Of a stretch of DNA of 64,000 nt, positions 1 to 63,367 are shown in pieces. The stretch spans positions 83,702,001-83,766,000 of the forward strand of contig CM059432.1 of NCBI GenBank assembly GCA_030390025.1, in the 5' to 3' direction. Numbering within the stretch: the stretch's first letter is position 1; every line of letters begins with the position of its first letter. A model generated the notes under the pieces. The model ran no database searches. It worked only from the letters and a program-made list of their open reading frames with translations, and had not been told where the DNA came from. A program made the translations under genes and the position numbers. This DNA is from Squalus acanthias (lineage: Eukaryota).

Positions 1-2359
1 GTGGGTGGGGTGCTTGGGTTGATGTGCGCTCCTTGCGCTGCCTGCGCTTAGCTTCCGCTTGCTCCCGGCGAAGAGACTCGAGGTATTCGACGCCTTCCCG
101 GATGCTTCTCCTCTACTTTGTGCGGTCTTGGGCCAGGGATTCCCAGGTGTCGCTGGGGATGTTACACTTTTTCAAGGAGGCTTTGAGGGTGTCCTTGAAG
201 CGTTTCCTCTGCCCACCTGGGCCTCTCTTGCCGTGCCGGAGCTCCGAGTAGAGCGCTTGTTTTGGGAGTCTTGTATCGGGCATGCGGACAATGTGACCTG
301 TCCATCGGAGCTGATCAAGCGTGGTCAAAGTTTCGATGCTGGGGATGTTGGCCTGAGCAAGAACACTGACGTTGGTGCGCCTATACTGCCAATGGATTTG
401 CAGGATCTGGCGGAGGCAGTGTTGGTGGTACCTCTCCAGTGCTTTGAGGTGCCTGCTGTACATGGTCCATGTCTCTGAGGCATACAGCAGGGCGGGTATC
501 ACTGCTGCTCTGTAGACCATGAGCTTAGTGCCGGGTTTGAGGTCCTGGTCTTCAAACACTCTCTTCCTCAGGTGACCGAAGGCTGCACTGGCACACTGAA
601 GGCGGTGTTGGACTTTGTCGTCGACGTCTGCCCTTGTTGACAGTAGGCTCCCGAGGTATGGAAAGTGGTCCATGTTGTCCAAGGCCTTGTCGTGGATTTT
701 GATAATCGGGGGGCAGTACTGTGTGGCGGGGGCAGGTTGGTAGAGGACCTTTGTCTTACGGATGTTTAGTGTAAGGCCCATGCTCTCGTATGCTTTGGTG
801 AAGGTGTTGACGATGGTTTGGAGTTCGACCTCGGAGTGAGCGCAGAGGCAAACGTCGTCTGCATACTGTAATTCGACAACAGAGGATGGGACGACCTTGG
901 ATCTGGACTGGAGGCGACGGAGGTTGAACAGTTTCCCGTTTGTTCTGTAAATTAGCTCCACTCCAGCGGGGAGCTTACTGAGGGTGAGATGGAGCATTGC
1001 AGCAAGGAAGATCGAGAAGAGCGTTGGTGCGATGACACAGCCTTGCTTGACCCCGGTCCGTACGTGAATTGGGTCTGTGGTGGAACCGTTGGTCAGGATC
1101 ATGGCTTGCATGTCATCGTGAAGCTGGCGGAGGATGGTGACAAACTTTTGAGGGCAGCCGAATTTGCGGAGGACACTCCATAATCCCTCACGGTTGACAG
1201 TGTCGAAGGCCTTTGTGAGATCAAAGAAGGCCATGTACAGCAGTTGGTGCTGTTCCCTGCATTTCTCTTGTAATTGACGTGCGATGAAGATCATGTCCAT
1301 TGTGCCCCTTAGTGGGCGGAATCTGCATTTTGTCTCTGGGAGGAGCTCTTCGGCCACAGGGAGAAGGCGATTGAGGAGGATTCTTGCGATGACTTTCCCT
1401 GTGGCAGACAGCAGGGAAACTCCTCTGTAATTACCGCAATCGGACTTATCACCTTTCTTGAAGATGGTCACAATTACGGCGTCTCTGAGATCCCCTGGCA
1501 TGCTCTCCTCCTTCCATATAAGAGAAATGAGTTCATGAATACACGCCAGTAGTGCTTCTCCGCCATGCTTTAGTGCCTCGGCGGGGATTCCATCTGCTCC
1601 TGAGGCCTTGTTGTTCTTCAGTTGTCGGATGGCCTTTTCAACCTCATGCCGGGCTGGGGTTGTGCTGAGATGGAGGCGGGTAGCATGCTGCGGGATGGAG
1701 TTAAGGACACTCGCGTCGAAGACAGAGTCGCGGTTAAGGAGATCTTCGAAGTGCACCTTCCAGCGGGCACTGACTGCCTCTCTGTCCTTGATGAGTACCT
1801 CTCCGTTTTTGGCCCGCAGTGGGGTAGGACCTTGGGTGCTTGGGCCGTAGGTGGTCTTGACTGCGCTAAAGAATCCACGCACGTCGTGGTTGTCGGCTAG
1901 CTGCTGGATCTCCTGCGCTTTCTCCACCCACCATCTGTTCTTTAGGTCGCGAGTTTTTTGTTGGACCTCAGCCTTCAGGCATCTGTAGAGCTGCTTTCTT
2001 GCTCTCGATTTCTGTTGCTGTTTCCAGATCAGGAATGCCTTGCGCTTGCGGCTTATTAGCTCCTGGATCTCCTGGTCGTTCTCGTCGAACCAGTCTTGGT
2101 GTTTCCTGGTTGAGTGACCGAGCGTCTCTTCAGAGGTGCTGATTATGGAGGCCTTGAGTGCAGACCAGGCGCTGTGGGCACTCTGTGTCTCTGCATCACT
2201 GGGAGTCGTCAGGTTGTTTGTGAGGCACAGGCTGAATAGGGCTTTCTTAGCGGGGTCTTTGAGTGCTCCAGCGTTAATTTTTCTGCGGCATTGTTTCTGT
2301 TGCCGCAGCTGTTTTGGGGCTACATTGATGGAGATGACAGAGCGGATTAGGCGGTGGTC
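1..2359 (-). mobile_element. RTE-clade (BovB-like) LINE, 5'-truncated; 3' end lies outside the window
   Basis: ORF 113..2608(-) from DHRLIRS (end of APE) through RT motifs FFDLTKAFDTV, GVKQGCVIAPTLF, LQYADD and the RTE C-terminal motif QLRWTGHIVRM..RLPK. TAG at 113-115 looks premature because RTE-like coding continues and 1-95 matches the RTE 3' fragment at 45136-45235. Confidence 0.93.
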
Positions 2360-5300
2360 TATATGTGACTTCAGACCCACAGCAATGTGGTTGACTCTTA
2401 ACTGCCCTCTGAAATGGCCTAGCAAGCCACTCAGTTGTAACAAACTGCTACGAAAAACAATAAAAAGAATGAAGTCAGATGGACCACCCGCCATCGACTT
2501 CGGCACCGGGTACGGACATGGCAATGGCACACCCAGCCCAGTCAACCCTGCAAAGTCCTCCTCACCAACATCTGGGGACTTGTGCCAAAATTGGGAGAGC
2601 TGTCCCACAGACTAGTCAAGCAACAGCCTGACATAGTCATACTCACAGAATCATACCTTTCAGCCAATGTCCCAAACTCCGCCATCACCATCCCTGGGTA
2701 TGTCCTGTCCCACCGGCAGGACAGACCCACCAGGGGTGGCGGCACAGTGGTATACAGTCGGGAAGGAGTGGCCCTGGGAGTCCTCAACATTGACTCCGGA
2801 CCCCATGAAGTCTCATGGCTTCAGGTCAAGCTTGGGCAAGGAAACCTCCTGCTGATTACCACCTACCGCTGACCCTCAGCTGATGAATCAGTACTGCTCC
2901 ATGTTGAACACCACTTGGAAGAAGCACTGAGAGTAGCAAGGGCACAGAATGTACTCTGGGTGGGGGACTTCAATGTCCATCACTAAGAGTGGCTCGGTAG
3001 CACCACTACTGACCGAGCTGGCCGAGTCCTGAAGGACATAGCTGCCAGTCTGGGCCTGCGACAGGTGGTGAGAGATCCAACACAAGATAAAAACCTACTT
3101 GACCTCGTCCTCACCAATCTACCTGTCGCAGATGCATCTGTCCATGACAGTATTGGTAGCAGTGACCACTGCACAGTCATTGTGGAGACGAAGTCCTGTC
3201 TTCACATTAACGACACCCTCCATCGTGTTGTGTGGCACTACCACTGTGCTAAATGGGATAGATTCAGAACAGATCTAGCAGCTCAAAACTGGGCATCCAT
3301 GAGGTGCTGTGGGCCATCAGCAGCAGCAGAATTGTATTCCACCACAATCTGTAACCTCATGGCTCGGCATAGCCCTCACTCTACCATTACCATCAAGCCA
3401 GGGGACCAACCCTGGTTCAATAAGGAGTGTAGAAGAGCATGCCAGGGAGCAGCACCAGGCGTACCTAAAAATGAGGTGCCAACCTGGGGAAGCTGCAACA
3501 CAGGACTACATGCATGCTAAAAAGCAGAAGCAGCATGCTATAGACAGGGCTAAATGATCCCACAATCAACGGATCAGATCAAAGCTCTGCAGTCCTGCCA
3601 CATCCAGTCGTGAATGGTGGCGGACAATTAAACAACTAACGGGAGGAGGAGGCTCCATGAATATCCCCAGCCTCAATGATGGTGGAGCCCAGCACATGAG
3701 TGCAAAAGACAAGGCTGAAGCGTTTGCAACCATCTTCAGCCAGAAGTGCCAAGTGGATGATCCATATCGGCCTACTCCTGAGGTCCCCACCATCACAGAA
3801 GCCAGCCTTCAGCCAATTCGATTTACTCCACGTGAAATCAAGAAACGGCTGAGCGCACTGGATACAGCAAAGGCTATGGGCCCCGACAACATCCCGGCTA
3901 TCGTGCTGAAGACTTGTGCTCCAGAACCAGCCGCGCCTCTAGCCGAGCTGTTCCAGTACAGCTACATCACTGGCATCTATCTGACAATGTGGAAAACTGC
4001 CCAGGTATGTCCTGTCCAAAAAAAGCAGGACAAATCCAACCCGGTCAATTACCGCCCCAACAGTCTACTCTCAATCATCAGCAAAGTGATGGAAGGTGTC
4101 ATCGACAGTGCTATCAAGCGGCATTTACTCACCAATAACCTGCTCACTGATGCCCAGTTTGGGTTCCGCCAAGACCACTCGGCTCCCGACCTCATTACAG
4201 CCTTGGTCCAAACATGGACAAAGGAGCTGAATTCCAGAGGTGAGGTGAGAGTGACTGCCCTTTACATCAAGGCAGCATTTGACCGAATTTGGCATCAAGG
4301 AGCCCGAGTAAAACTGAAGTCAATGGGAATCGAGGGGAAAACTCTCCACTGGCTGGAGTCATTCCTAGCATAAAGGAAGATGATTGTGGTGGTTGAAGGT
4401 CAATCATCACAGCCCCAGGACATCGCTGCAGGAGTCCCTCAGGGGAGTGTCCTGGGCCCAACCATCTTCAGCTGCTTCATCAATGACCTTCCCTCCAACA
4501 TAAGGTCAGAAATGGGGATGTTCGCTGATGACTGCACAGTGTTCAGCACCATTCACAACTCCTCAGATAATGAAGCAGTCCATGCCCGCATGCAACAAGA
4601 CCTGGACGACGTTCAGGCTTGGGCTGATAAGTGGCAGGTAACATTCGCGCCACAGAAGTGCCAGGCAATGACTATCTCCAACAAGCGAGAGTCTAACCAC
4701 CTCCCCTTGACATTCAATGGCATTACCTTCGCTGAATCCCCCACCATCAACATCCTGGGGGTCACCATTGACCAGAAACTTAACTGGACCAGCCAGATAA
4801 ATACTGTGACAACAAGAGCAGGTCAGAGGCTAGGTATTCTTTGGCAAGCGTCTCACCTCCTGACTCCCCAAAGCCTTTCCACCATCTACAAGGCACAAGT
4901 AAGGAGTTTGATGGAATATTCTCCATTTGCCTGGATGAGTGCAGCTCCAACAACACTCAAGAAGCTCAACACCATCCAGGACAAAGCAGCCCGCTTGATT
5001 GGCACCCCATCCACCACCTCAAACATTCATTCCCTCCACCACCGGCGTACCGTGGCTGCAGTGTGTACCATCTACAAGATGCACTGCAGCAACTCGCCAA
5101 GGCTTCTTCGGCAGCACCTCCCAAACCCTGCGACCTCTTCCACCTAGAAGGACAAGGGCAGCAGGCGCATGGGAACACCACCACCTCCAAGTTCCCCTCC
5201 AAGTCACACACCGTCCTGACTTAGAAGTATATCGCCGATCTTTCATCATTGCTGGGTCATAATCCTGGAACTCCCTACCTAACAGCACTGTGGGAGTACC

Positions 5301-5428
5301 TTCACCGCACGGACTGCAGCAGTTTAAGAAGGCGGCACACCACCACCTTCTTAAGGGCAATTAGGGATGGGCAATAAATGCTGGCGTTGCCAGCGACGCC
5401 CTACATTCCATAAACGAATAAAAAAAAT
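2360..5428 (+). mobile_element. Family-T LINE (single APE-RT ORF, CR1/Jockey group, Zenon-like); near full length, tRNA head missing, ORF broken by stops/frameshifts
   Basis: APE motifs KVLLTNIWGL, DIVILTESYL, GDFN, SDH; RT motifs AAFDRIWH, GVPQGSVLGP, FADD; 3' tail aagggcaattagggatgggcaataaatgctggc...gaataaaaaaaa; 5' body (cagcaatgtggttgactcttaactg) shared with the copies at ~15930 and ~52820. Confidence 0.92.
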
Positions 5429-6742: not shown

Positions 6743-9115
6743 TTTTTTTATTCGTTCTTGGGATGTGGGCGTCGCTGGCAACGCCAGCATTTATTGCCCA
6801 TCCCTAATTGCCCTTGAGAAGGTGGTGGTGAGCCGCCTTCTTGAACCACTGCAGTCCGTGTGGTGAAGGTACTCCCACAGTGCTGTTAGGGAGGGAGTTC
6901 CAGGATTTTGACCCAACGACGGTGAAGAAACGGCAATATATTTCCAAGTCAGGATGGTGTGTACCTTGGAGGGGAACTTGGAGGTGGTGGTGTTCCCATA
7001 CGCCTGCTGCCCTTGTCCTTCTAGGTGGTAGAGGTTGCGGGTTTGGGAGGTGCTGCCGAAGAAGCCTTGGCGAGTTGCTGCAGTGCATCTTGTAGATGGT
7101 ACACACTGCAGCCATCGTACGCCGGTGGTGCAGGGAGTGAATGTTTAAGATGGTGGATGGAGTGCCAATCAAGCGGGCTGCTTTGTCCTGGATGGTGTCA
7201 AGCTTCTTGAGTGTTGTTGGAGCTGCATTCATCCAGGCAAGTGGAGAGTATTCCATCACGCTCCTGACTTGTGCCTTGTAGATGGTGGAAAGCCTTTGGG
7301 GAGTTAGGAGGTGAGACACTTGCCACAGAATACCCAGCCTCTGACCTGCTCTTGTTGCCACAGTATTTATGTGGCTGGTCCAGTTAAGTTTCTGGTCAAT
7401 GGTGACCCCCCCAGGATGTTGATGGTGGGGATTCGGCGATGGTAATGCCGTTGAATGTCAAGGGGCAGTGATTAGACTTTCTCTTGTTGGAGATAGTCAT
7501 TGCCTGTCACTTCTGTGGTGCAAATGTTACTTGCCACTTATCAGCTCAAGCCTGAATGTTAGCCAAGTCTTGCTGCATTCGGGCATGGACTGCTTCATTA
7601 TCTGAAGAGTTGCGAATGGAACTGAACACTGTGCAATCATCAGCGAACATCCCCAATTCTGACCTTATGATGGAGGGAAGGTCATTGATGAAGCAGCTGA
7701 AGATGGTTGGGCCTAGGACACTGCCCTGAGGAACTCCTGCAGCGATGTTCTGGGGCTATGATGATTGACCTCCAACAACCACAACCATCTTCCTTTGTGT
7801 GACGTATGACTCCAGTAAGTGGAGAATTTTCCCCCTGATTCCCATTGACTTCAATTTTACTAGAGCTCCTTGATGCCACACTCAGTCAAATGCTGCCTTG
7901 ATGTCAAGGACAGTCACTCTCACCTCACCTCTGGAATTCAGCTCTTTTGTCCATGTTTGGACCAAGGCTGTGATGAAGTCTGGAGCCTAGTGGTCCTGGC
8001 GGAACCCAAAGTGAGCATCAGTGAGCAGGTTGTTGGTGAGTAAGTGCCGCTTGATTGCGCTGTCTTCGACACCTTCTATCACTTTGCTGATGATTGAGAG
8101 TAGACTGATGGGGCGGTAATTGGCCGGATTGGATATGTCCTGCTTTTTGTGGACAGGACATAACTGGGAAGTTTTCCACAATGTCGGGTAGATGCCAGTG
8201 TTGTAGCTGTACTCGAACTGCTTGGCTAGAGGCACAGCTAGTTCTGGAGCACAAGTCTTCAGCACTACAGCCGGGATGTTGTTGGGGCCCATAGCCCGTA
8301 TCCAGTGCGCTCAGCCGTTTCTTAATATCACGTGGAGTGAATCAAATTAGCTGAAGACTGGCTTCTGTGATTGTGGATCATCCACTTGGCACTTCTGGCT
8401 GAAGATGGTTGCAAATGCTTCAGCCTTGTCTTTTGCACTCATGTGCTGGGCTGCTCCATCATTGAGGATGGGGATATTCCTGGAACTTCCTCCTCCCGTT
8501 AGTTGTTTAATTGTCCACCACCATTCACAACTGGATAGGGCAGGACTGCAGAGCTTTGATCTGATCCGTTGATTGTGGGATCACCTAGCTCTGTCTATAG
8601 CATGCTGCTTCCGCTGTTTAACATACATGTAATCCTGTGTTGCAGCTTCCCCAGCTTGACACCTCATTTAAAGGTACGCCTGGTGCTGCTCCTGGCATGC
8701 TCTTCTACACTCCTCATTGAACCAGGGTTGGTCCCCTGGCTTGATGGTAATGGTAGAGTGAGGAATATGCCGCGCCATGAGTTTACAGATTGTGGTGGAA
8801 TACAATTCTGCTGCTGATGGCCCACAGCCCCTCATGGATGCCCAGTTTTGAGCTGCTAGATCTGTTCTGAATCTATCCCATTTAGCATGGTGGTAGTGAC
8901 ACACATCACGATGGAGGGTGTCCTCAGTGTGAAGACGGGGCTTCGTCTCCGCAAGGGCTGTGCGGTGATCACTGCTACCAATGCTGTCATGGACAGATGC
9001 ATCTGTGACATGTAGATTGGTGAGAACGAGGCCAAGTAGGTTTTTCCCTCGTGTTGGTTCGGTCACCACCTGCCGCAGTCCTAGTCTGGCAGCTATGTCC
9101 TTCAGGACTCGGCCA
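6743..9115 (-). mobile_element. Family-T LINE, 5'-truncated, inserted in L2
   Basis: Reverse complement of the tail at 6743-6815; high similarity to ~3020-5420; L2 reading (..LQLNIG / KAVLFGP..) resumes on both sides. Confidence 0.92.
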
Positions 9116-15586: not shown

Positions 15587-16225
15587 GGACTCCCAGGGCC
15601 ACTCCCTCCCGATTGTATACCCCTGTGCCACCACCTCTGGTGGATCTGTCCTGCCGGTGGTACAGGACATACCCAGGGATGGTGTTGGAGGAGTTTGGGA
15701 CATTTGCTGAAAGGTATGATTCTGTGAGTATGACTATGTCAGGCTGTTGCTTGACTAGTCTGTGTGGGCAGCTTTCCCAATTTTGGCATATATCCCCAGA
15801 TGTTAGTGAGGAGGACTTTGCAGGGTTGGCTCGGCTGGCCTGGGTGTGCCGTTTTCGTGTCCGAAGCCAGTGGCTAGGTCGATGCCGGGTGGTCCGTCAG
15901 GTTTTATTCTTATTATTGCTTTTCGTGTAGCAGTTAAGAGTCAACCACATTGCTGTGGGTCTGGAGTCACATATTGACCAGACCAGATAAGGACGGCAGA
16001 TTTCCTTCCCTAAAGAACATTAGTGAACCAGATGGGTTTTTACGACAATCCGATGGTTTCATGGTTACCATTACTGATACTAGCTTTTTTATTCCAGATT
16101 TATTTAATTAACTGAGTTTAAATTCCCCAGCTGCCATGGTGGGATTTAGAACTCATGTCTCCGGATCATTAGTCCAGGCCTCTGGATTACTAGTCCAGTA
16201 ACATTACCACTATGCTACCTTTCCC
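15587..16225 (-). mobile_element. Family-T LINE 5' fragment with tRNA-derived head
   Basis: Minus strand: A box tagcatagtgg (16207-16217), B-box-like gagttctaaatccc (16141-16154), SINE-like body, then APE start homologous to ~2480-2780. Confidence 0.88.
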
Positions 16226-21322: not shown

Positions 21323-22794
21323 CGGCTATCCCTTTAAGCGGTGAGTATCCCTTTAAGTAGTGCTTGAAATAGACATCAACTCCGTGTTTACTCCCAATCA
21401 GCTGGTTGCTGTTAGGGGAGGGCGTTAGGCACCAAAATGCCGTGCAGCCTTTTTAATGAGCTTTAGCAGGCTCTTAAAGTGGCAATCAGCTGTTTAACAA
21501 GCCTCCGGGAGGCCGTTCCTAGCACTGTCTTCAACTCCTTTACCAAGATGGTGTCTTGCGCTAAACGTGGGCTAAACCGCGTTGCAGCTTAAGCTCCCAC
21601 CTTGGCCACCTCTTTAGCGCCTAAAGTATTCAACGAAAATCATCCCTGTATCATCATTGAAGAGGAATTCTTTTGCAAGTAAATATCATAACTCAGTCAT
21701 GTCTGTCTTGCACACAAGTTGTTGATCTTTCACACTTGTGAAAGAAAACTAGTAAATTGCAACCACAATTTTTTTCTCGAGATGTGGGCATCACTGGTAA
21801 TGCTGGCATTTATCGCCCATCCCTAACTGTCCTAGAGTAGGGGGAGGTGCGCCTTCTTCTTGAACCACTGCAGTCTGGTGAAGGTGTGGTGAAGGTGTTT
21901 CCAAAATGCTGTTAGGGAGGGAGTTCCAGGATTTTGACCCAGCGATGATGAAGGAAATACAAAATATGTCCAAGTCAAGATGGTGTGTGACTTGGAGGGG
22001 CACTTGGAGGTGATGATGTTATCATGCACCTGCTGCCCTTGTTCTTCTCGGTGATGGAAGTCATAGGTCTGTGAAATTCTTCTGATGAAGCCTTAGCAAC
22101 TTGCTGCAGTGCATCCTGTAGATAGTACACACTGTAGCCATGGTACATCGGTGGTGGAGGGAGTGAATGTTTAATGTGGTGGATGCACTGTCGATCAAAC
22201 AGCCTGCTTTGTCCTGGATTGTGTAAAGCTTCTTGAGAGTTGTAGCAGCTGCACCCATCCAAACAAGTGAAGAGTCTTCCATCACAATGCTGACTTGTAC
22301 CTTGTAGGTGGTGGAGAGGCTTTGGGAATCAAGAGGTGAGCCACTCGCCATAGAATATCCAGCCTCTGAACTGCTCTAGTAGCAACAGCATTTATGTGGC
22401 TTGTCCAGTTAAGTTTCTGGTCAATGGTGATACCAGGATGTTGATGGTGGGGGATTTGGCGATGGTAATGCTCTTGAATGTCATGGGGAGGTGGTTAGAC
22501 TCTCTCTTGTTGGAGGTGGTCATTGCCTGGCACTTGTGTGGTGTGAATGTTACTTGCCACTTATCAACCCAAGTTGTCCAGGTCTGGTTGCATGTGGCGC
22601 AGACTACTTCATTATCTGAGGAATTGAAAATGGAGCTGAACACCGTGCTATCATCAGCAAACAGCCCCACATCTGACCTTACGATGAAGGGAAGGTAATT
22701 GATGAAGCAGCTGAAGATAGTTGGGCTTAGGACACTGCCCTGAGGAATTCCTGGGGTGAGAAGATTGGCCTCCAACAAACATAACTATTTACCC

Positions 22795-24475: not shown

Positions 24476-24688
24476 ACCCTTTGTTCTAGGTATGACTCGA
24501 GCAATTGCAGAGATTTCCCGTGATCCCATTGACTTCAGTTTTACTAGGGCTCCTTGGTGCAACACTCAGTCGAATGCTGCCTTGATGTCAAGGGCAGTCA
24601 CTCTCACCTCTCCTCTGCAATGGCTGCCCATTACAGAAACCACCAGATTTTCATTTCCATATTAATGGAATATAAATCAGGCGATTTC

Positions 24689-46914: not shown

Positions 46915-48990
46915 TAGTGTCATCCGCAAACTTAGATATGCGGCTCTCTATTCCTTCATCCAATTCATTTATAAATATAGTGAAAAGCTGTGGCCCCAGT
47001 ACAGATCCCTGGGAGGCACCACTAGTCACATCCTGTCAATTTGCGTACATAGCCATTATCCGTACTTTCCAAACCAATTCTCTATCTAAGCCAATAGGTT
47101 GTCTCCAATTCCATGCACTCTCATTTTTGTTAACAGTCTTTTATATGGAACCTTGTCAAATGCCTTATGGAAGTCCATATAAATAACATCCATAGATAAT
47201 CCCTTAACTACCACGTTAGTAACCTCCTCAAAAAATTCAACTAGGTTTGTTCGACAAAGCCTACCCTTTACAAATCTATGCTGGCTCTCCCTGATCAGCT
47301 CATATGTCAAAATCATGTAAAGTGCTCTGTCATGATATGGTTGTTGGAGGTCAATCATCTCATCCCCAGGACATCGCTGCATGAGTTCCTCAGGGCAGTG
47401 TCCTAGGCCCAACCATCTTCAGCTGCTTCATCAATGACCTTCCCTCCAACATAAGGTCAGAAGTGGGGATGTTCACTGACGATTGCAGAGTGTTCAGTGC
47501 CATTCACAACTCTTCAGCTAATGATGCATTCCATGCCTGCATGCAGCAAGACCTGGACGACATTCAGGCTTGGGCTGATAAGTGGCAAGTAACATTCACG
47601 CCACACAAGTGCCAGGCAATGACTATCTCCAACAAGCGAGCGTCTAACTGCCGCCGCTTAACATTCAACGGCATTACCATCACCAAATCCCCCACCATCA
47701 ACATCCTGGGGGTCACCATTGACTAGAAACTTAACTGGACCAGCCACATAAATACTGTGGCTACAAGAGCAGGTCAGAGGCTAGGTATTCTGCAGTGAGT
47801 GTCTCACCTCCTTACTCCCCAAAGCCTTTCCACCATCTACAAAGCACAAGTCAGGAGTGTGATGGAATACTCTCCACTTGCAGCTCCAACAACACTCAAG
47901 AAGCTCAACACCATCTAGGACAAAGCAGCCTGCTTGATTGGCACCCCTTCCACCACCTTAAACATTCACTCCCTCCACCACCAGCGTACCGTGGCTGCAG
48001 TGTGTACCATCTACAAGATACACTGCAGCAACTCGCCAAGGCTTCTTCGGCAGCACCTCCCAAACCCGCGACCTCTACCACCTAGAAGGACAAGGGCAGC
48101 AGACACGTGGGAACACCATCACCTGCAAGTTCCCCTCCAAGTTACACACCATCCTGGCTTGGAAATATATTGCTGTTTCATCATCGCTGGGTCAAAATCC
48201 TGGAACTCCCTCCCTAACAGCACTGTGCGAGTACCTTCACCACATGGACTGCAGCGGTTCAAGAAGGCGGCTCACCACCACCTTCTCAAGGTCAATTAGG
48301 GATGGGCAATAAATGCTGGCCTTGCCAGCGACGCCCACATCCCATAAAACAAGTAAAAATAAACTATGTCCCTAATAATCGATCTTAGTAACTTCTCCAC
48401 AACTGAGATTAGACTAATAGGTCTATAATTTCCTTGTTTTTCTCTTACCCTTCTTAAATAGTGGATTGACATTGGCAATCCAAGGGAACAATTCCTGAGA
48501 CAAATCGAGACAGTTTTGGAAAATCATGACGAATGCATCAACAATTTCTTTATCTACTACTTTTAATATCCTGGGGTGGAAACCATCAGGTCCTGGAAAT
48601 CTGTCTATAGTTAATAATATTAGTTTCTCCATCACCATATTTTTACTTATATTGAATCTAGTTAGTTCCTCCCCTTGATTTATTTTTATTTTTCCTTGCA
48701 TCTCTGGTATTTTATCCTCATCCTCTACTGTGAAGACCGATACAAAGTAACTATTTAGTAAATCTGCCATTTCCTTATTTCCAATTACAATATCACCTGC
48801 ATCTGTCATTAAGGGCCCACATTACTTTTATCCACCCTCTTTCTCCTAATATATTTGTAAAACCCTTTCGTGTTGCCCTTGATATGCCTCACAAGTTTTT
48901 TCTCGTATTCCTTTTCGCGGGTCTTACCACTTTCTTTGTGCCCCTTTGCTGTTCTTTGTATCTCTCCCAGTCTGCGGGATCTCGACTGTT
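46915..48990 (-). mobile_element. CR1 ORF2 fragment split by a family-T insertion
   Basis: SQHRFVKGRLCRTNLVEFFEEVT..MDFHKAFDKVP (47090-47320) and GNKEMADLLNSYF..PGPDGFHPRILK (48420-48810). Confidence 0.82.
47338..48360 (+). mobile_element. Family-T LINE 3' fragment
   Basis: Colinear with ~4390-5425, including the tail. Confidence 0.92.
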
Positions 48991-49925: not shown

Positions 49926-52900
49926 TTTTTTTTAATCATTCATGGAATGTGGGAGACGCTGGGAAGGCCAGCATTTATTTCCCATCCCTAGTTGCCCTTG
50001 AGAAGGTGGTGGTGAGCCACCTCCTTGAACCGCTGCAGTCTGTGTGGTGAAGGTACTCCCAGAGTGTTGTTAGGGAGGGAGTTCCAGGATTTTGAACCTG
50101 GAGGGATTGTGACTTGGAGGGGAACTTGGAGGTGGTGGTGTTCCCATGTGCCTGCTGCCCTTGTCCTTCTAGGTGGAAGAGGTCATGATTTGGGAGGTGC
50201 TGCCGAAGAAGCCTTGGCAAGTTGCAGCAGTGCATCTTGTAGATGGTACACACTGCAGCCACGGTGTGCCTGGTGGTGGAGGGAGTGAATGTTTAAGGTG
50301 GTGGATGGGGTGCCAATCAAGCGGGCTGCTTTGTCTTGGATGGTGTCGAGCTTCTTGAGTGTTGTTGGAGCTGCACTCATCAGGCAAGTGGAGAGTATTC
50401 CATCACACTCCTTACTTGTGCCTTGTAGACGGTGGAAAGGCTTTGGGGAGTCAGGAGGTGAGACACTCGCCACAGAATACCCAGCCTCTGACCTGCTCTT
50501 GTTGCCACAGTATTTATATGGCTGGTCTAGTTAAGTTTCTGGTCAATGGTGACCCCCAGGATGTTGATGGTGGGGGATTTGGCGATGGTAATGCTGGTTA
50601 ATGTCAAGGGGCAGTGGTTAGACGCTCGCTTGTTGGAGATACTCATTGCCTGGTACTTGTGTGGCGCGAATGTTACCTGCCACTTTTCAGCCCAAGCCTT
50701 AATATCATCCAGGTGTTGCTGCATGCGGGCATGGACTGCTTTATTATCTGAGGAGTTGCGAATGGCACTGAACACTGTGTAGTCATCAGCGAACATCCCC
50801 ACTTCTGACCTTATGATGGAGGGAAGGTCATTGATGAAGCAGCTGAAGATGATTGGGCCTAGGACACTGCCCTGAGGAACTCCTGCAGCGATGTCCTGGG
50901 GCTGTGATGATTGACCTCCAACCACCACAACCATCTTCCTTTGTGCTAGGTATGACCCCAGCCAGTGGAGAGTTTTCCCACCGATTCCCATTGACGTCAG
51001 TTTTACTAGGGCTCCTTGATGCCACACTCGGTCAAATGCTGCCTTGATGTCAAGGGCAGTCACTCTCACCTCACCTCTGGAATTCAGCTCTTTTGTCCAT
51101 ATTTGGACCAAAGCTGTAATGAGGTCTGGAGCCAATGGTCCTGGCGGAACCCAAACTGGGCATCAATGAGCAGGCTATTGCTGAGTAAGTGCCGCTTGAT
51201 AGCACTGTCGACGACACCTTCCATCACTTTGCTGATGATTGAGAGTAGACTGATGGGGCGGTAATTGGCCGGATTGGATTTGTCCTGCTTTTTGTGGACA
51301 GGACATACCTGGGCAGTTTTCCACATTGTCGGATAGATGCCAGTGTTATAGCTAAACTGAAACATCTTGGCTAGAGGCGCAGCTAGTTCTGGAGCACAAG
51401 TCTTCAGCGCGACAGTCGGGATGTTGTTGGGGCCCACAGCCTTTGCTGTATCCAGTACCCTCAGTCGTTTCTTGATATCACGTGGAGTGAGTCGAATTGG
51501 CTGAAGACTGGCTTCTGTGATGGTAGGGACCTCAGAAGGAGGCCGATATCAGCACTTCTGGCTGAAGACATTTGCAAACGCTTCAGCCTTGTCTTTTGCA
51601 CCCACTTGCTGGGCTCCACCATCATTGAGGATGGGGATATTCATGGAGCCTCCCTCTCCCGTTAGTTGTTTAATGGTCTACCACCATTCACGACTGGATG
51701 TGGCAGGACTGCAGAGCTTTGGTCTGATCCGTTGATTGTGGGATCGCTTAGCCCTGTCTACAGCATGCTGCTTCCACTTTTTAGCATGCATGTAGTCCTG
51801 TGTTGCAGCTTCCCCAGGTTGGCATCTCATTTTTAGGTGCACCTGGTGCTGCTCCTGGCATGCTCTTCTACACTCCTTATTGAACCAGGGTTGGTCCCCT
51901 GGCTTGATGGTAATGGTAGAGTGAGGGATATGCCGAGCCATGAGGTTACAGATTGTGGTGGAATACAATTCTGCTGCTGCTGATGGCCCACAGCGCCTCA
52001 TTGATGCCCAGTTTTGAACTGCTAGATCTGTTCTGAATCTATCCCATTTAGCACGGTGGTAGTGCCACACAACACAATGGAGGGTGTCCTCAGTATTAAA
52101 ATGGGACTGCGTCTCCACAATGACTGTGCGGTGGTCACTGCTACCAATACTGACATGGACAGATGCATCTGTGACAGGTAGATTGGTGAGGACGAGGTCA
52201 AGTAGGTTTTTCCCTCGTGTTGTTTCTCTCACCTCCTGTCACAGGCCAAGACTGGCAGCTATATCCTTCAGGATTCAGCCAGCTCGGTCAGTAGTGGTGC
52301 TACCGAGCCACTCTTCATGATGGACATTGAAGTCCCCCAGCCAGAGTACATTCTGTGCCCTTGCTCCCTTCCGTGCTTCTTCCAAGTGGTGTTCAACATG
52401 GAGGAATACTGATTCATCAGCTGAGGGTGGTAATCAGCTGGAGGTTTCCTTGCCTATGCTTGACCTGAAGCCATGAGACTTCATGGGGTCCAGAGTCAAT
52501 GTTGAGGACTCCCAGGGCCACTCCTTCCCGACTGTATACCACGGTGCCGCCACCCCTGTTGGGTATGTCCTGTCCCACCAGGGATGGTGATGGAGGAGTC
52601 TGGGACATTGGCTGAAAGGTATGATTCTTTGAGTATGACTGTCAGGCTGTTGCTTGACTAGTCTGTGGGACAGCTCTCCCAATTTTGGCACAAGTCCCCA
52701 GATATTGGTAAGGAGGACTTTGCAGGGTCGACTGGGCTGGGTGTGCCGTTGTCGTGTCCATAGCCGGTGCCGAGGTCAATGCCGGGTGGTCTTTTATTCT
52801 TATTGTTTTTCACAACTGAGTGCAGTTAAGAGTCAACCACATTGCTGTGGATCTGGAGTCACATATAGGCCAGACCAGGTAAGGACGGCAGATTTCCTTG

Positions 52901-53101
52901 TCTAAAGGACCAGGGAACCAGACAATCCAATAGTTTCATGGTTACCATTACTGATACTAGTTTTTCATTCCAGATTTATTTAATTAACTGAATTTAAATT
53001 CCCCAGCTGCCGTGGTGGGATTTGCACTCACATCTCACGGATCATTCGTCCAGGCCTCTGGATTACTAGTCCAGCAACATAACCACTATGCTACTGTTCC
53101 C
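49926..53101 (-). mobile_element. Family-T LINE spanning tRNA head to tail (small internal deletions, ORF broken)
   Basis: Minus strand: gggaacagtagcatagtgg (A box 53083-53093), gagtgcaaatccc (B-box-like 53017-53029), SINE-like body, APE start MPKLGELSHRLVKQQPD, RT ALDIKAAFDRVWH..FADD, tail and A-run at ~49926-49933. Confidence 0.92.
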
Positions 53102-55161: not shown

Positions 55162-58113
55162 TCATGTCCAAATTCCTGCCCGCTCCCCGTAACCCTTAAT
55201 GCCCTTTACTTCTAGGAAACTGTCTATTTCTGTTTTAAATTTAATTAATGTTGTAGCTTCTACAGCTTTTTGTGGCAGCATATTCCATGGACCTACCACC
55301 CTCTGAGTGAAGTAGTTCCTCCTCATCTCAGTTTTGAAAGAGCAGCCCCTTATTCTAAGACTATGTCCCCTAGTTCTCGTCTCACCCGTCATCGGGAACA
55401 TCCTCCCCGCATCCACCCGATCCAACCCCTTCACAATCTTATATGTTTCAATAAGATCGCCTCTCATTCTTCTGAACTCCAATGAGTAGAGTCCCAATCT
55501 ACCCAACCTCTCCTCATATGACCACCCCCTCATCCCCGGGATTAACCGAGTGAACCTTTTTTGCACTGCCTCGAGAGCAAGGATGTCTTTCCTTAAGTAA
55601 GGACACCAAAACTGTATGCAGTATTCCAGGTGCGGTCTCACCAATACCTTGTACAACTGAAGCAATACCTCCCTATTTTTATATTCTATCCCCCTAGCAA
55701 TGAAAGCCAACATTCCATTTGCCTTCTTAATCACTTGCTGCACCTGCATACTAACCTTTTGAGTTTCGTGCACCAGGACCCCCAGATCCCTTTGCACTTC
55801 AGTACTCTCCAGTTTCTTGCCATTAAGATAATAAATTGCTCTAGGATTTTTCCTGCCAAAGTGCATCACCTCACACTTTCCAGTGTTGTATTCCATCTGC
55901 CAAATCTCTGCCCACTTACTTAGCCTGTCTATGTCCCCTTGCAGGTTTTTTATGTCCTCCTCACTCACTACTTTCCCTCCCATCTTTGTATCATCTGCAA
56001 ATTTTGATATGTTACACTTGGTCCCTTCCTCCAAATCGTTAATATAGATTGTGAAGAGTTGGGGACCCAGCACTGACCCCTGTGGAACACCACTAGTTAC
56101 TGATTGCCAGTCTGAGAATGAACCATTTATCCCAACTCTTTGCTTTCTGTTAGATAGCCAATCCTCTATCCATGCCAGAATATTACCCCCAATCCCGTGA
56201 TTTTTTACCTTAAGCAATAATCTTTTGTGTGGCACCTTGTCAAATGCCTTTTGGAAGTCTAAATACACTACGTCCACTGGTTCCCCTTTATCCACTCTAT
56301 ATGTTACTTCCTCAAAGAACTCCAGCAAATTTGTCAAACATGACTTCCCCTTCGTAAAACCATGCTGACTTTGTCCTATTAAATTATGATTATCCAAATG
56401 TCCTGTTACTGGTTCCTTAATAATGGACTCCAAAATTTTACCTACCACAGATGTTAGGCTAACCGGTCTATAGTTACCAGCCTTCTGTCTACTGCCCTTT
56501 TTAAATAAGGGTGTTACATTAGCAGTTTTCCAGTCTGCCGGGACCTTAGCGGAATCCAGGGAGTTTTGAAAAATTATTACCAATGCATCTACAATCCCTA
56601 CCGCCACTTCCTTCAAGACTCTAGGATGTAAGCCATCCGGTCCAGGTGATTTATCCGCCTTGAGTCCCATTATTTTACCGAGTACCACTTCCTTAGTGAT
56701 TTTGATCGTGTTTAGCTCCTCTCCCCCTATAGCCCCCTGTTTGTCCAGTGTTGGGATATTCTTAGTGTCCTCTACTGTAAAGACTGATACAAAATATTCA
56801 TTCAGTGTTTTTGCCATCTCCATATTTCCCACCATTAATTTCCCGGTCTCATCCTCTAAGGGACCAACATTTACTTTAGCCACCCTTTTTCTTTTTATAT
56901 AACTATAAAAACTCTTACTATCTGTTTTTATATTTTTTGCTAATTTACTTTCATAATCTATCTTCCCTTTCTTAATCAATCTTTTTGTTATTTTTTGCTG
57001 CCTTTTAAAGTTTTCCCAATCCTCTGTCCTCCCACTAGATTTCGCTACCTTATATGCCCTTGTTTTTAGTCGAATACTATCCTTAATTTCTTTACTTAGC
57101 CACGGATGACTGTCCTTTCTTTTACACCCTTTTCTTTTCAGTGGAATATATTTTTTTTGGAAGTTGTAAAATAACTCCTTGAATGTACACCACTGATCAT
57201 GTGTCGTCTTACCCTTTAATCTATTTTCCCAATCCACTCTACTCAATTCCGCTCGCATACCTTCATAGTCTCCTTTATTCAAGCTTAGCACGCTTGTTTG
57301 AGATCCAACCTTCTCACCCTCTAATTGAATATGGAATTCAACCATGTTATGGTCACTCATTCCAAGGGGATCCTTTACTAGGACATTTTTAATTAATCCT
57401 GTCTCGTTACACAGGACCAGATCTAAGGTTGCTTGCCCCCTGGTCGGTTCAGTTACATACTGCTCAAGAAACCCATCCCTAATACACTCAATGAACTCAT
57501 CCTCAAGGCAGCCCTGCCCCATTTGATTTGTCCAATTAATATGATAGTTAAAATCCCCCATAATTATAGATGTTCCCTTATTACATGCCTCAACTATTTC
57601 CTGATTGATACTCCGTCCAATAGAGTTGCAACTGTTCGGAGGCCTATAGACTACGCCCACTAATGTTTTTTTCCCCTTATTATTCCTTATCTCCACCCAA
57701 ACTGTTTCATTATCATGATTTTTTGACCCAATATCATTACTCTGTATTACAGTGATTCCTTCCTTTATTAACATAGCCACCCCACCTCCCCTTCCTTCCT
57801 GCCTGTCCTTCCTGATCGTTAAATAACCTGGTATGTTTAATTCCCAGGCATTGTCACCCTGCAGCCATGTTTCTGTAATGGCCACAATATCATAACCATA
57901 TGTAGTTAATTGTGCCATTAACTCGTCTATTTTGTTACGAATGCTATGTGCATTCAGATAGAGAACTTTCAAATATGCTTTGTGGCACTTAGTTCCTGCT
58001 TTTTCACTTTTTACCAGTTTACCTTTTACTCCACACACTCTGTCCCTTCCTGCCACGCTCTGATTTGTGATTCCCCTACTGCTACCTATGTCTATGACCC
58101 TCTCTGTTGTCAT
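55162..58113 (-). CDS. CR1 ORF2: APE endonuclease plus reverse transcriptase, uninterrupted 983 aa
   Basis: YLNAHSIRNK, AITETW, GDFN, SDH (APE); YLDFQKAFDKVPH, GVPQGSVLGP, FADD (RT); no internal stop. Confidence 0.95.
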   Translation of the reverse strand: MTTERVIDIGSSRGITNQSVAGRDRVCGVKGKLVKSEKAGTKCHKAYLKVLYLNAHSIRNKIDELMAQLTTYGYDIVAITETWLQGDNAWELNIPGYLTIRKDRQEGRGGGVAMLIKEGITVIQSNDIGSKNHDNETVWVEIRNNKGKKTLVGVVYRPPNSCNSIGRSINQEIVEACNKGTSIIMGDFNYHINWTNQMGQGCLEDEFIECIRDGFLEQYVTEPTRGQATLDLVLCNETGLIKNVLVKDPLGMSDHNMVEFHIQLEGEKVGSQTSVLSLNKGDYEGMRAELSRVDWENRLKGKTTHDQWCTFKELFYNFQKKYIPLKRKGCKRKDSHPWLSKEIKDSIRLKTRAYKVAKSSGRTEDWENFKRQQKITKRLIKKGKIDYESKLAKNIKTDSKSFYSYIKRKRVAKVNVGPLEDETGKLMVGNMEMAKTLNEYFVSVFTVEDTKNIPTLDKQGAIGGEELNTIKITKEVVLGKIMGLKADKSPGPDGLHPRVLKEVAVGIVDALVIIFQNSLDSAKVPADWKTANVTPLFKKGSRQKAGNYRPVSLTSVVGKILESIIKEPVTGHLDNHNLIGQSQHGFTKGKSCLTNLLEFFEEVTYRVDKGEPVDVVYLDFQKAFDKVPHKRLLLKVKNHGIGGNILAWIEDWLSNRKQRVGINGSFSDWQSVTSGVPQGSVLGPQLFTIYINDLEEGTKCNISKFADDTKMGGKVVSEEDIKNLQGDIDRLSKWAEIWQMEYNTGKCEVMHFGRKNPRAIYYLNGKKLESTEVQRDLGVLVHETQKVSMQVQQVIKKANGMLAFIARGIEYKNREVLLQLYKVLVRPHLEYCIQFWCPYLRKDILALEAVQKRFTRLIPGMRGWSYEERLGRLGLYSLEFRRMRGDLIETYKIVKGLDRVDAGRMFPMTGETRTRGHSLRIRGCSFKTEMRRNYFTQRVVGPWNMLPQKAVEATTLIKFKTEIDSFLEVKGIKGYGERAGIWT

Positions 58114-58151
58114 TTTTATTTTTTGCTCTCTTGAAACCTCCCCCCCACTAA

Positions 58152-58850
58152 TTAGTTTAAAGCCCTCTCCACAGCCCTAGTTATTCGATTCGCCAGGACA
58201 CTAGTCCCAGCACTGGCCAAGTGAAGTCCGTCCCAACGGAACAGCTCTCTCCTGCCCCAGTACTGGTGCCAGTGTCCCAAGAAGCAAAACCCATTTTTCC
58301 CACACCAGTCTTTGAGCCACGCATTCAACTCCCTGATTTTATTTACCCTAGCCAAATTTGCTCGTGGCTCAGGTAGTAATCCAGAGATTATTACCCTCGA
58401 GGTTCTGCTTTTTAATTTGGCCCCTAGCTGCTCAAACTCCCTCAGCAGAACCTCTTTCCTTGTCCTATCTATGTCATTGGTACCAACATGGACCACGACA
58501 ACTGGATCCTCCCCCTCCCACTCCAAGTTTCTCTCCAGCCCAGAGGAGATGTCCTTAACCCTGGCACCGGGCAGGCAACACAGCCTTCGGGACTCTCGCT
58601 CTTGGCTGCAAAGAACCCTATCTATCCCCCTAATGATACTATCCCCTACCACGACAACATTTCTTTTTACTCCCCCCACTTGAATGGCCCCCCTTACCAC
58701 GGTGCTGTGGCCAGGTTGCTCATCCTCCCTGCAGTCCCCGCTCCTATCCACACAGGGAGTAAGAGCCTCGAACCTGTTGGACAAGAGCAAGGGCTGCGGC
58801 TCCTCCAACACTACCTCCTGGATCCCTGTACCTGCCTCACTCGTAGTCAC
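58152..58850 (-). CDS. CR1 ORF1 C-terminal SGNH/GDSL esterase domain (5'-truncated)
   Basis: VVGDS, PGAR, HVGTND and DGLHL blocks of the SGNH hydrolase fold. Confidence 0.9.
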   Translation of the reverse strand: MTTSEAGTGIQEVVLEEPQPLLLSNRFEALTPCVDRSGDCREDEQPGHSTVVRGAIQVGGVKRNVVVVGDSIIRGIDRVLCSQERESRRLCCLPGARVKDISSGLERNLEWEGEDPVVVVHVGTNDIDRTRKEVLLREFEQLGAKLKSRTSRVIISGLLPEPRANLARVNKIRELNAWLKDWCGKNGFCFLGHWHQYWGRRELFRWDGLHLASAGTSVLANRITRAVERALN

Positions 58851-60087
58851 ACCTCAGAGGAAGCTCCAGCCTCTGTGGGTGCACCATCAGCAGACCCAAA
58901 TGCACCTAGCACCAGCGCAGAGACGCACACCTCGGTGGATCCTGTGCGAGATAGACCAGTGTTGTCACCTGGTGTCCCTCAGATCACAAGCAAGCAAGAG
59001 CAGATGGTGTTGACAGGGACAGGAGTGGAGACTCCTCGCCGGGGGGCGCAGGACGCTCCAAGATCTGCTGAGCTGCATGCAGACACTGAGCCTCGGGGGC
59101 CACCGAGAAAGAAGGTGATCTTGGAGAGACAGCATCAATTGCATGAGGCTCTGGCAGCTTTTGCAGCCGCGATGTCTGCAAATATGCAGAGAATGGAGGA
59201 GTCCATCTCCAACATGAGCACCACCATGTCGCAGGCGATGGCGACGATGTGCTGTTCCATGGAAAGGATGGCCACCTGCATGGAGCAGCAAATGCGCCAG
59301 TCACATGAGCACAAGCTTGCTGTGGACAACAGATGGCAGACGCTCATTGACCTCATCTCGAGGAGGGATATGAACGTAGACTTGGGCGTTTCTCGCCCCA
59401 CTGATGTGCAGCAAAGTGCTCTCCAACTCCTTGCTATCAGGGAAGTGCAGGTGGCCCATGAGAGGGATGATGTTGAGAGGGGATATGGAAGTGGGGGCTC
59501 TTCTCAAAGCGCTCACACTTTTCCCCATTGCCTCGCCCTCAGTCAGAGCCCCACATGCTTCCTCGGATCCCGCTGGCCGAGTCTGCCCCTGCACAGTTGC
59601 AGGAGGAGCAGTCTTTGGCGGGGCCCTCACAGGCTCCAAAACCCAGAGGACTTACAACAAAAGTGTCTAAGCAGTTACAGCAGCGAAGTGAGCAGCCTGT
59701 CTCTACCTCTGCTGAAGCCACAGGGGTTGCACCTCGTAGAAGCATGTGGAAAAGAAAAAAGACACAAACCTAGATGCACAAGGGTATGCACATGGGTGTA
59801 TGAACAAATGTTAGTGATAAGTTTCAGTTATATTTATGACACAGATAAATTTATTTCTTTGCATCACTTTCCATTTTTGTCTGTGACCTGAGAAGTGGCT
59901 TTGTCACTTGGAGTGAATGGTGAGACATTACTTAACTTCGAGCTATGGGGGTTTGGGTGAGAGGAATGGCTTGTTCATTGTAGGGATGCTTTATTGTGTT
60001 GTTGGTGGGTGCGGGGTGGGGGGGGGGGGGGGGGTGGGGGTAAACTTAGTACAGCATGTGGCAGTCATATGGGTGCATTGGAGCAAG

Positions 60088-61300: not shown

Positions 61301-61362
61301 TGAGAGGTCGCACAACACCAGGTTATAGTCCAACAGTTTTATTTGAAATCACAAGCTTTCGG
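61301..61362 (-). mobile_element. Isolated Penelope pseudo-LTR fragment
   Basis: Close match to 62826-62887. Confidence 0.85.
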
Positions 61363-62821
61363 CTGTGATAGTGACTAGCAATGTGGTGAGAGTGGGTTCC
61401 GAGGTTGCAGAAATGACCTGCAAACTGCTGACAGCTAAATCTCTGCACAAAATGGAGTCAGCAAGAGCTTTTCCATTACCAAGTAATCAGGTGCAAAGTG
61501 TGAGTATTTATGTGTTTTTTCCAGCTGTCAATTAATGAACTCACACAATGGCCACTGAGCTTCCACCTCCCCATCACATGCAAGGTTCCTGTGGTGTGTG
61601 AATCCTGTGCTCAAGAAGTTAAAGCCAAAAGCTGCTGTTAAAAAGCCTCTTAAGGGTCTCTCAACAAGCATTTAAGTACTTCAATGAAGTCGCCCACCTC
61701 TGCCGAGCGGGTCTGTGGCACGCTGGGAAATGCGCCAGCGCTAAATGCGGAAGTCGGCGTGATGACGGCGGGTTCCCGACGCGCTGTCAATTTCCGCGAT
61801 TTTTACTGCTGACCCACCCCCCAAACCCACACGCTCGGGACTGGGAAAATTCCTGCCTTGCATTATGTTAAGTGAGGGACCCAGCCTCCAAGTCAATTCT
61901 ACACATGGAATAAAACCAGTGTCCATTAGTTTACTCACGTTCCTTCTCGGCAGCATGAAGATCAGTGTTTAAAGTCTTTCATGTTACACTAGAGAGGGCT
62001 CCATAGAGTATATGCCTTTTTCATTGATTACTTGTAAAAAATCTTAATGGAAATATTAAATTGTCAATGGTTAGCCAAATCTTCCAACCTGAGGATAATT
62101 TTATAATGGTGCAAAAGAAAAGCAAAAAGAGTAAAAATGGAAGACAGATACAGTAAATTGGAATATTTCAGATTTCTTGTCAATTTTTCTTTTCTGCAAA
62201 ATAATTGAATGGCAGGCATTAGATTTGAACTCTAGAATCCACAAGGGCACCAGACACAAACTATAAAGCAACTCTAAAGACATGACTGGGAATACAGCAG
62301 AAGAATCCAGGAGGAGCCTGGAGGCTGCAATAAAAAAGGAGAAAGAAATTTTGGGGTGGATTTCTTCTGCGAGCTATATGTAGCCAAATCATAAACATGT
62401 TCGTTATAAACAGATTTTGTTACACATGGTGCACAGAAAAAAGCTTCCCCCATAATTTCTCGCAATAACTTTTGTGAACTTCTTGCACAACCTTTTCAGT
62501 TTCTTGAGGCTTTAATAATGGATGGTTTTACTTGCTGATTTTCAGTGGAATTCTAGCCAAACCATTGCTACAAAGTTATAGAAAAAATGATCAGTAACCC
62601 GCTCGCTAGAAAGAAAGAGAAGACAGATGCTGGGACCGCAGTAACAGCACAGTTGGTAACTAACCCTTCCAACTCACTCTTACTTTCTAAACATTCATCT
62701 TCATTTTAGAATACGCATCCACTTGTCTAATTACTTAGTTTACTGGTATATTTTATACCAGACAGAATAAATTAAAGGTCTGGGGCAACCTAAAGCATCT
62801 AGAGGCCTAACACATATAATG

Positions 62822-63367
62822 AAAATGAGAAGTCGCACAACACCAGGTTATAGTCCAACAGATTTATTTAAAATTACAAGCTTTCGGAGCTGTCGGCCTT
62901 CTGGATACACGACAGCGCAAAATCATAGAGCAGAAACTGATAGCCAAGTTCCGCACTCATGAGGATGGCCTCAATCGCGATATCGGGTTCATGTCACGAT
63001 ACAGAACGTGACTTGACATCATGGCCGGTCTTTCCAGGTTTTTTTTAAAAAACTAACACAAGAACCAAACTCAACTGAAGAGGATATGCAGCCAGCAGGT
63101 GTTTTGACACGTTGGACCCCCTGGGACACATCTCATTGTCTTGGCTGTGCTCTTAGTGTGTCTTTGATGTAGGGAAAGATTTGAATACATTTTTTCTGTG
63201 TTTATATTGTGAATTCTGGGAGATTCTCTCACAGCTACCCTACCTGAAGAAGGAGCGACAGCTCCGAAAGCTTGTAATTTTAAATAAATCTGTTGGACTA
63301 TAACCTGGTGTTGTGCGACTTCTCATTTTTGTCCACCCCAGTCCAACGCCGGCATCTCCACATCATG
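62822..63367 (+). mobile_element. Penelope-like element: inverted partial pseudo-LTR, GIY-YIG C-terminus, pseudo-LTR
   Basis: Perfect 74-bp inverted repeat (62822-62895 / 63256-63329); RKIIEQKLIAKFRTHEDGLNRDIGF; flanking direct repeat acatataatgaa (62812-62823, 63368-63379). Confidence 0.9.
63240..63278 (+). ncRNA. Minimal hammerhead ribozyme motif
   Basis: CTGAAGA (63244-63250), A, stem ggagc/gctcc with loop gaca, GAAA, palindromic AAGCTT. Confidence 0.8.

Follow-up and report, generated by a model that had tools for sequence, protein, structure and literature searches.

A tRNA-headed, single-ORF APE-type LINE family in Squalus acanthias and its putative transcription by RNA polymerase III

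Organization of the element and its relatives in the window

The window analysed here is a 64,000-nt stretch of Squalus acanthias DNA (contig CM059432.1, positions 83,702,001 to 83,766,000). The focal element lies on its minus strand and reads from 53101 to 49926, with GGG as its first bases at 53101, followed by a tRNA-type head, a body, an endonuclease-reverse transcriptase (RT) frame and an A-tailed end at 49926. An initial annotation had described this copy as running continuously from head to tail without an ORF1, and our analysis bears this out, with the A box at 53093-53083 and the B box at 53029-53018. The features of the focal copy are:

49926-53101, minus strand: copy of the tRNA-headed LINE family, full-length but inactivated, 5.3% from the family majority
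53013-53101, minus strand: tRNA-derived head with D arm, anticodon arm, long extra arm and T arm, without acceptor stem
53083-53093, minus strand: A box of a type-2 Pol III promoter (sequence motif)
53018-53029, minus strand: B box, with one substitution in the focal copy; family version intact
52810-53012, minus strand: non-coding body or 5′ UTR, 241 nt in the family; fold not significant
52715-52809, minus strand: ORF leader, Arg-rich and AUG-less, with an A-rich stretch before it
49988-52809, minus strand: the single family ORF, 972 codons between stops, in which Met first occurs at codon 286
52130-52715, minus strand: apurinic-type endonuclease domain (Pfam PF03372/PF14529), broken in the focal copy
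50545-51270, minus strand: RT domain (Pfam PF00078), with the FADD motif at 50793
49926-50036, minus strand: 3′ tail with a stem-loop (z -3.1), an AATAAA-like motif and an A tail, common to the short SINE forms

The focal copy is dead, as its frame contains 12 indels, 10 of which shift the reading frame, and in-frame stops as well. It carries eight deletions of at least 5 nt; deletions have shortened the body of ~240 nt, the candidate ACG start falls inside a 13-nt deletion, and the B box differs from that of the family by T>G. Family copies (49926-53101 and loci L002-L060) have many deletions of 8-36 nt, together with larger internal ones, at only 3-6% substitution.

Seven related segments occur in the window, six of at least 600 bp and one of 144 bp; the initial annotation had counted six copies. 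Besides the focal copy these are:

15587-16225, minus strand: second copy with head, body and ORF start; 3′ part absent
2355-5427, plus strand: copy 5′-truncated within the body, reaching the A tail
6743-9115, minus strand: 5′-truncated copy
47338-48363, plus strand: 5′-truncated copy
21774-22788, minus strand: older 5′-truncated copy, 15.9% from the majority
24478-24621, minus strand: internal RT fragment

The head-body-ORF junction of the focal copy recurs at 15587-16225, as had been claimed, and the body-ORF junction placed earlier near 2360-2600 is present at 2355-2600. A separate older subfamily was considered for 21774-22788 and rejected, its best other matches reaching just 79-83%.

Other repeats share the window. 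A near-intact CR1-type LINE (55162-58853, minus strand), with a 1,004-codon endonuclease-RT frame and a GDSL-esterase ORF1 upstream, served as a control. A further LINE (113-2355, minus strand), whose RT frame is long and open and which is presumably RTE-like from its motifs, adjoins the family copy at 2355, a contact that is probably a nested insertion. Short inverted repeats (62822-62902 with 63248-63329, and a third copy at 61301-61362) are possibly a MITE at 61301-63329.

The head as the inherited 5′ end of the coding unit, and its short derivatives

A family majority of 3,311 nt, built from 74 aligned segments, holds one 972-codon frame starting at nt 330, and 73 of the 74 segments differ from it by 2.5-8.7%. 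The endonuclease and RT catalytic motifs are intact and all lie in this one frame (Pfam matches and motif placement), and the family has no ORF1. Two subfamilies, of 31 and 22 segments, are separated by 46 differences, and both retain a full frame of 972-973 codons. The head-body-ORF architecture of the family is certain.

The Rfam tRNA match to the head covers its D, anticodon and T arms, without an acceptor stem, and is weak (model positions 7-64, 22.2 bits, E=0.063; gathering score 29 bits); ARAGORN predicts no tRNA gene at the head. The A and B boxes are identical between the subfamilies save for one degenerate A-box position. At head positions 13 and 32 of the family, variants common in the subfamilies replace A-U by G-U pairs in the D and anticodon stems, so that tRNA-like arms are retained.

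The initial annotation had asked whether full-length copies start at the GGG before the A box. With a query comprising the head and the endonuclease, the alignments of 20 of 29 other loci begin at position 1-2, beyond which their flanks show no relation to one another; the head-to-A-tail structure is complete in at least 5 of the 29 long loci. This sample is biased toward copies that hold both parts. A sample free of that bias, consisting of the 20 best of 39 other matches to endonuclease DNA alone, contains 8 copies that extend to the head start, 10 that are cut in the head or body and 2 that are cut in the leader, and an alternative shared 5′ end is found in none of these 20. The upstream flanks of long truncated copies share just out-of-register repeats. 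Shared sequence upstream of the head, a Pol II 5′ UTR and an ORF1, each of which would speak against the proposed architecture, were looked for and none was found.

Exact-pattern searches of the 3.7-Gb assembly, whose counts are lower bounds on copy number, returned 42,027 matches to the tail, 3,732 to the head with A and B boxes, 2,129 to the body followed by the endonuclease start and 357 to the body followed by the tail (within 30 nt), and none to reversed versions of all four patterns. The family thus has a common 3′ end with an A tail and, judging by its tails relative to its heads, a gradient of 5′ truncation, as in APE-type LINEs. A single body-to-ORF junction is shared by the 2,129 matches, so that differing head-ORF junctions, which were looked for, did not appear, and the initial view of a replicating architecture in place of a chance insertion is upheld. 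No clear target-site duplication was found in 11 of 11 copies examined; in this LINE group the duplications can be short or missing. The head is a real, inherited 5′ end of the coding unit.

Several loci show other arrangements. In L056 and L190, the head is followed by family sequence in reverse orientation, resembling 5′ inversions or nested insertions, and a tandem array of a 40-nt endonuclease-region piece lies upstream of a copy at L040:4302-4900. The flanks of L003, L030 and L075 contain pieces like the printed SacSINE1 head and Deu domain, evidence that the genome also houses another SINE family.

The family head also begins short elements. When the head alone served as query, the 20 best matches comprised 14 copies that continue into the ORF, 5 short head-body-tail forms and 1 interrupted copy. 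Of 14 heads taken in position order along one contig, 6 continue into the ORF, 4 belong to short forms, each with a junction of its own, and 4 are interrupted. The short forms are 380-480 nt long and fuse parent positions 299-356 to 3167-3234, joining the 5′ and 3′ parts of the parent by internal deletion, as in bipartite LINE derivatives. Remnants of the ORF leader and ORF end persist in some of them, which identifies the long form as their parent; short SINE forms therefore arise from the LINE by internal deletion, an origin that had been suggested at the outset. Among 100 listed of the 357 junction matches, three junctions recur approximately 31, 24 and 9 times (hand count), which may reflect either SINE lineages that amplify themselves or hotspots of microhomology. 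Contigs from four runs of four organisms, whose RNA nature is a guess, cover the head, leader and ORF and include short-form joints; these contigs do not carry strand, start or head-ORF linkage, nor do they establish expression.

Coding constraint, translation start and T-tract depletion

Variants present in at least 10% of copies have a pN/pS of 0.20-0.23 and rare variants one of 0.86, with CpG-type changes left out and one divergent copy dropped. The ORF was kept intact by purifying selection in the source lineages. Head and RT variants, although ~2 kb apart, are moreover linked (p<0.03 for 15 of 27 site pairs; best Fisher p 0.0004), and together with pN/pS this linkage indicates that source elements held both the head and a working ORF, and points to a cis preference. 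Gene models from Heptranchias, Heterodontus, Pristiophorus and Rhincodon include protein fragments 65-87% identical to the family, from which it follows that the ORF family is spread across sharks. In this genome the family seems quiescent, as no intact copy is present among those sampled, the longest family-frame ORF being 581 aa.

No in-frame AUG precedes the endonuclease, the first in-frame Met being codon 286, beyond that domain. The leader is open in 40 of 66 copies and contains an ATG in just 3, two via frameshift and one via decay of ACG, while an ACG lies within the first 8 codons of 20 of the 40 open leaders. The Arg-rich character of the leader is retained, and common variants from nt 398 onward are synonymous. 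Translation would most likely start at the ACG following the A-rich stretch. Further ideas were tried: the fold of the body is not significant (z +1.25, with window z-scores likewise), leaving a structured IRES-like body unsupported; long-range pairing of the body end with the tail ranked 88 of 288; pairing via the stretch 187-221 (16 of 2,887 random pairs) was equalled by 11 of 60 shuffles after correction; and a frameshift from an AUG-started short overlapping frame in the body is not favoured, as the A-rich site varies among copies.

Human Pol III terminates at T4 and at degenerate T5 (PMC3141230). The sense strand of the family contains no T4 run, compared with 15 on the antisense strand and 3.9 runs of T4 or longer expected under mononucleotide shuffling (p 0.03); by itself this absence is not significant under dinucleotide or codon nulls, for which 1.5-1.8 runs are expected (p 0.12-0.22). 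Windows with four T in five occur once on the sense strand versus 20.6 expected (p<=0.0025), or 10.0 when dinucleotides are kept (p 0.005), and the ORF has 5 runs of T3 or longer versus 11.3 under codon shuffling (p 0.004). Runs of A, C and G are near expectation, depletion is present in both subfamilies, and none is seen in the ORFs of two other window LINEs, CR1 and the second LINE (41 vs 39 and 24 vs 14). The observed-to-expected ratio for T3 or longer runs is 0.31 in the family, versus a minimum of 0.65 and a median of 1.1 in the 72 of 80 related metagenome LINEs that are long enough to score, and none of these 72 shares the zero-T4 state. Given that T4 runs do arise in copies after insertion (29 in 151.6 kb), their absence in source elements needs selection.

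Phe makes up 1.85% of the family protein, a lower share than in 192 of 194 related proteins. In three relatives the Phe content equals or falls below that of the family, which we count against the reading favoured below, as we do the lack of a terminator inside the element, the missing target-site duplications and the lack of an intact copy in the sample. Related LINE proteins P0200, P0086 and P0087 (also P0142, P0107 and P0090) have 1.5-2.1% Phe and are candidates for further T-avoiding elements. On these sequence statistics, the coding RNA was probably transcribed by Pol III.

Proposed mechanism, alternatives and relation to known elements

We think it likely, from the arrangement of promoter boxes, frame and T tracts, that the family is an autonomous single-ORF APE-RT LINE with its tRNA-derived A/B-box head as promoter. 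Initiation by TFIIIC and Pol III would take place at the GGG that precedes the A box by 8 nt, and transcription would continue for 3.3 kb until Pol III meets the first T run of the flanking DNA. This uncapped RNA would need no AUG for its translation, the ACG close to the frame start being the most likely initiation codon, and the protein would bind the 3′ stem-loop of its own RNA, which would then be inserted through target-primed reverse transcription. SINEs with both promoter and recognition tail would result when the enzyme jumps on its template from the tail to the body end. In a human assay, retrotransposition of Pol III transcripts did not require ORF1p (PMC2666806), in keeping with the lack of an ORF1 in the family; many relatives look single-ORF too, and this lack therefore need not reflect Pol III.

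An unlikely alternative is that Pol II makes the coding RNA, by host read-through or from a cryptic body promoter, and that the head is an RNA element or relic, such as a processing or stability signal setting the 5′ end, with T avoidance being a leftover or otherwise caused. Pol II is held to transcribe LINEs, elements of several clades release their own 5′ ends by cleaving longer transcripts (PMC5786205), and translation would be easier for a capped RNA. However, the head has no acceptor stem for RNase P-type cutting, an Rfam search gave no ribozyme family match, and an in-frame AUG is missing even if the RNA is capped. Conservation of the B box among copies (0.967) is close to that of the body (0.956), which is what neutral decay would give, and it therefore proves nothing in favour of Pol III. 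The boxes are unchanged between subfamilies apart from the degenerate A-box position. The depletion, which occurs in both subfamilies, affects no base but T, no strand but the sense strand and none of the other families compared, and this argues against Pol II as well.

A division of labour, with template RNA from Pol III and protein supplied in trans by Pol II-read copies or another LINE family, seems to us quite improbable. Such a division would accommodate three points: Pol III RNAs lack a cap, SINEs are described as non-coding (PMC5786205), and the family frame has no AUG start. Templates copied in trans would decay, however, yet the shared variants have a pN/pS of about 0.2, the majorities of both subfamilies hold a full frame linked to their own head, and 0 of the 20 copies chosen as the best of 39 has a different 5′ end. 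That the head-ORF copies are repeated one-off chimeras, made by a LINE RT switching onto an abundant SINE RNA, has been largely refuted and is very improbable. Template switching does yield such chimeras (PMC4824008, PMC5499810), and short SINE forms are common (4 of 14 heads, and 5 of 20 among the best 20 matches) and dominate in some other organisms' runs; nevertheless, the body-to-ORF junction is identical in thousands of copies, RT alleles track head alleles, and it is the short forms that have many junctions, some with pieces of the ORF leader and ORF end. A constant long-form junction opposed to varied short-form junctions gives the direction from LINE to SINE.

In a quick tree of 79 of 229 eligible rows, which does not fix the clade, the RT of the family is placed apart from that of the window CR1, with invertebrate-type proteins as the nearest rows at an unstarred node, and this suggests a place in the L2/CR1 group of APE LINEs. 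Membership in the CR1 clade proper was rejected, as the family has no ORF1 and its RT is separate from that of the window CR1, the control with a GDSL ORF1. CR1-Zenon or Daphne is a candidate label for the family. Zenon is listed with one ORF (PMC4016481). Invertebrate LINEs of the L2/CR1 group have an APE-RT protein 33-50% identical to that of the family (invertebrate-type, Loxostege, Amphiura and Scylla entries) and, like it, a short Arg-rich leader ahead of the endonuclease; in contrast to the family, these relatives begin with Met. Neither head similarity nor T-run depletion was found in 80 distant relatives with DNA (T runs scored in 72), BLAST, box motifs and relaxed ARAGORN found no tRNA heads in 80 metagenome loci, many of them short-flanked, and viral contigs searched for tRNA-headed relatives gave no matches.

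R2 likewise has a single ORF, and its uncapped RNA, which is not a Pol II product, and non-AUG start parallel the uncapped, AUG-less message proposed for the family. R2 uses a ribozyme and co-transcription with rRNA (PMC5786205), and is site-specific, with a restriction-like endonuclease and Pol I read-through, whereas the family is dispersed and APE-type, with a putative internal promoter of its own. In bipartite LINEs and SINEs (Bov-A/Bov-tA; SINE2-1_ACar with Vingi-2_ACar), short forms also consist of LINE 5′ and 3′ parts, and a tRNA head precedes LINE-derived sequence (PMC5786205). There, however, the head was added to a deleted, non-coding derivative, while here it sits on the full coding element, so that deletion alone makes a SINE. 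The text of Kojima 2018 available to us describes tRNA heads on deleted RTE and Vingi derivatives, treats autonomous LINEs as Pol II-transcribed and SINEs as unable to encode protein, and reports bipartite forms just for RTE, Ingi, Vingi and R2 (PMC5786205).

SINE2 elements such as SacSINE1, paired with L2-2_CM (PMC5499810), and HE1, paired with HER1 (PMC3747384), share with the family an A/B-box head, a body, a LINE-type tail and a start few bases before the A box. Unlike them, the family is 3.3 kb long with a 972-codon frame, and only its 380-480-nt derivatives are short and non-coding. In the accessible part of Luchetti 2017, shark SINE-LINE homology is limited to the tail (PMC5499810). Identity of the head with that of SacSINE1, and of the body with the Deu domain of SacSINE1/AmnSINE1, was rejected, as the printed SacSINE1 head, EbuSINE2 and SINE2-2_CM Deu differ by eye, and motif searches of the available portion of the PMC5786205 supplement were negative; UCON3 identity was rejected for want of a match by eye. 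In a literature search with most subscription papers outside its scope, no account came up of a tRNA head on a coding LINE, for which a Repbase or Dfam entry is possible (further related literature, available in part: PMC7245038, PMC11481361, PMC9004415, PMC3234267).

A coding LINE bearing an A/B-box head contrasts with the accepted picture of Pol III products, in which they are short and do not code for protein. On balance, we favour the view that the family was a once very successful vertebrate Pol III mRNA, 3.3 kb long and uncapped, which would encode, from a non-AUG start, a protein whose sequence was moulded by the avoidance of Pol III terminators, copy itself and shed SINEs by single deletion. 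If true, this breaks the split by which LINEs belong to Pol II and SINEs to Pol III, and invertebrate LINEs with low Phe may form a further such group that has gone unrecognised. It also lets a LINE give rise to a SINE in one step. One natural sequence would make testable the length limit of Pol III transcripts, uncapped AUG-less translation and the origin of SINEs, and the combination of a tRNA head with a T-tract-free ORF would provide a signature with which genomes may be scanned for more cases.
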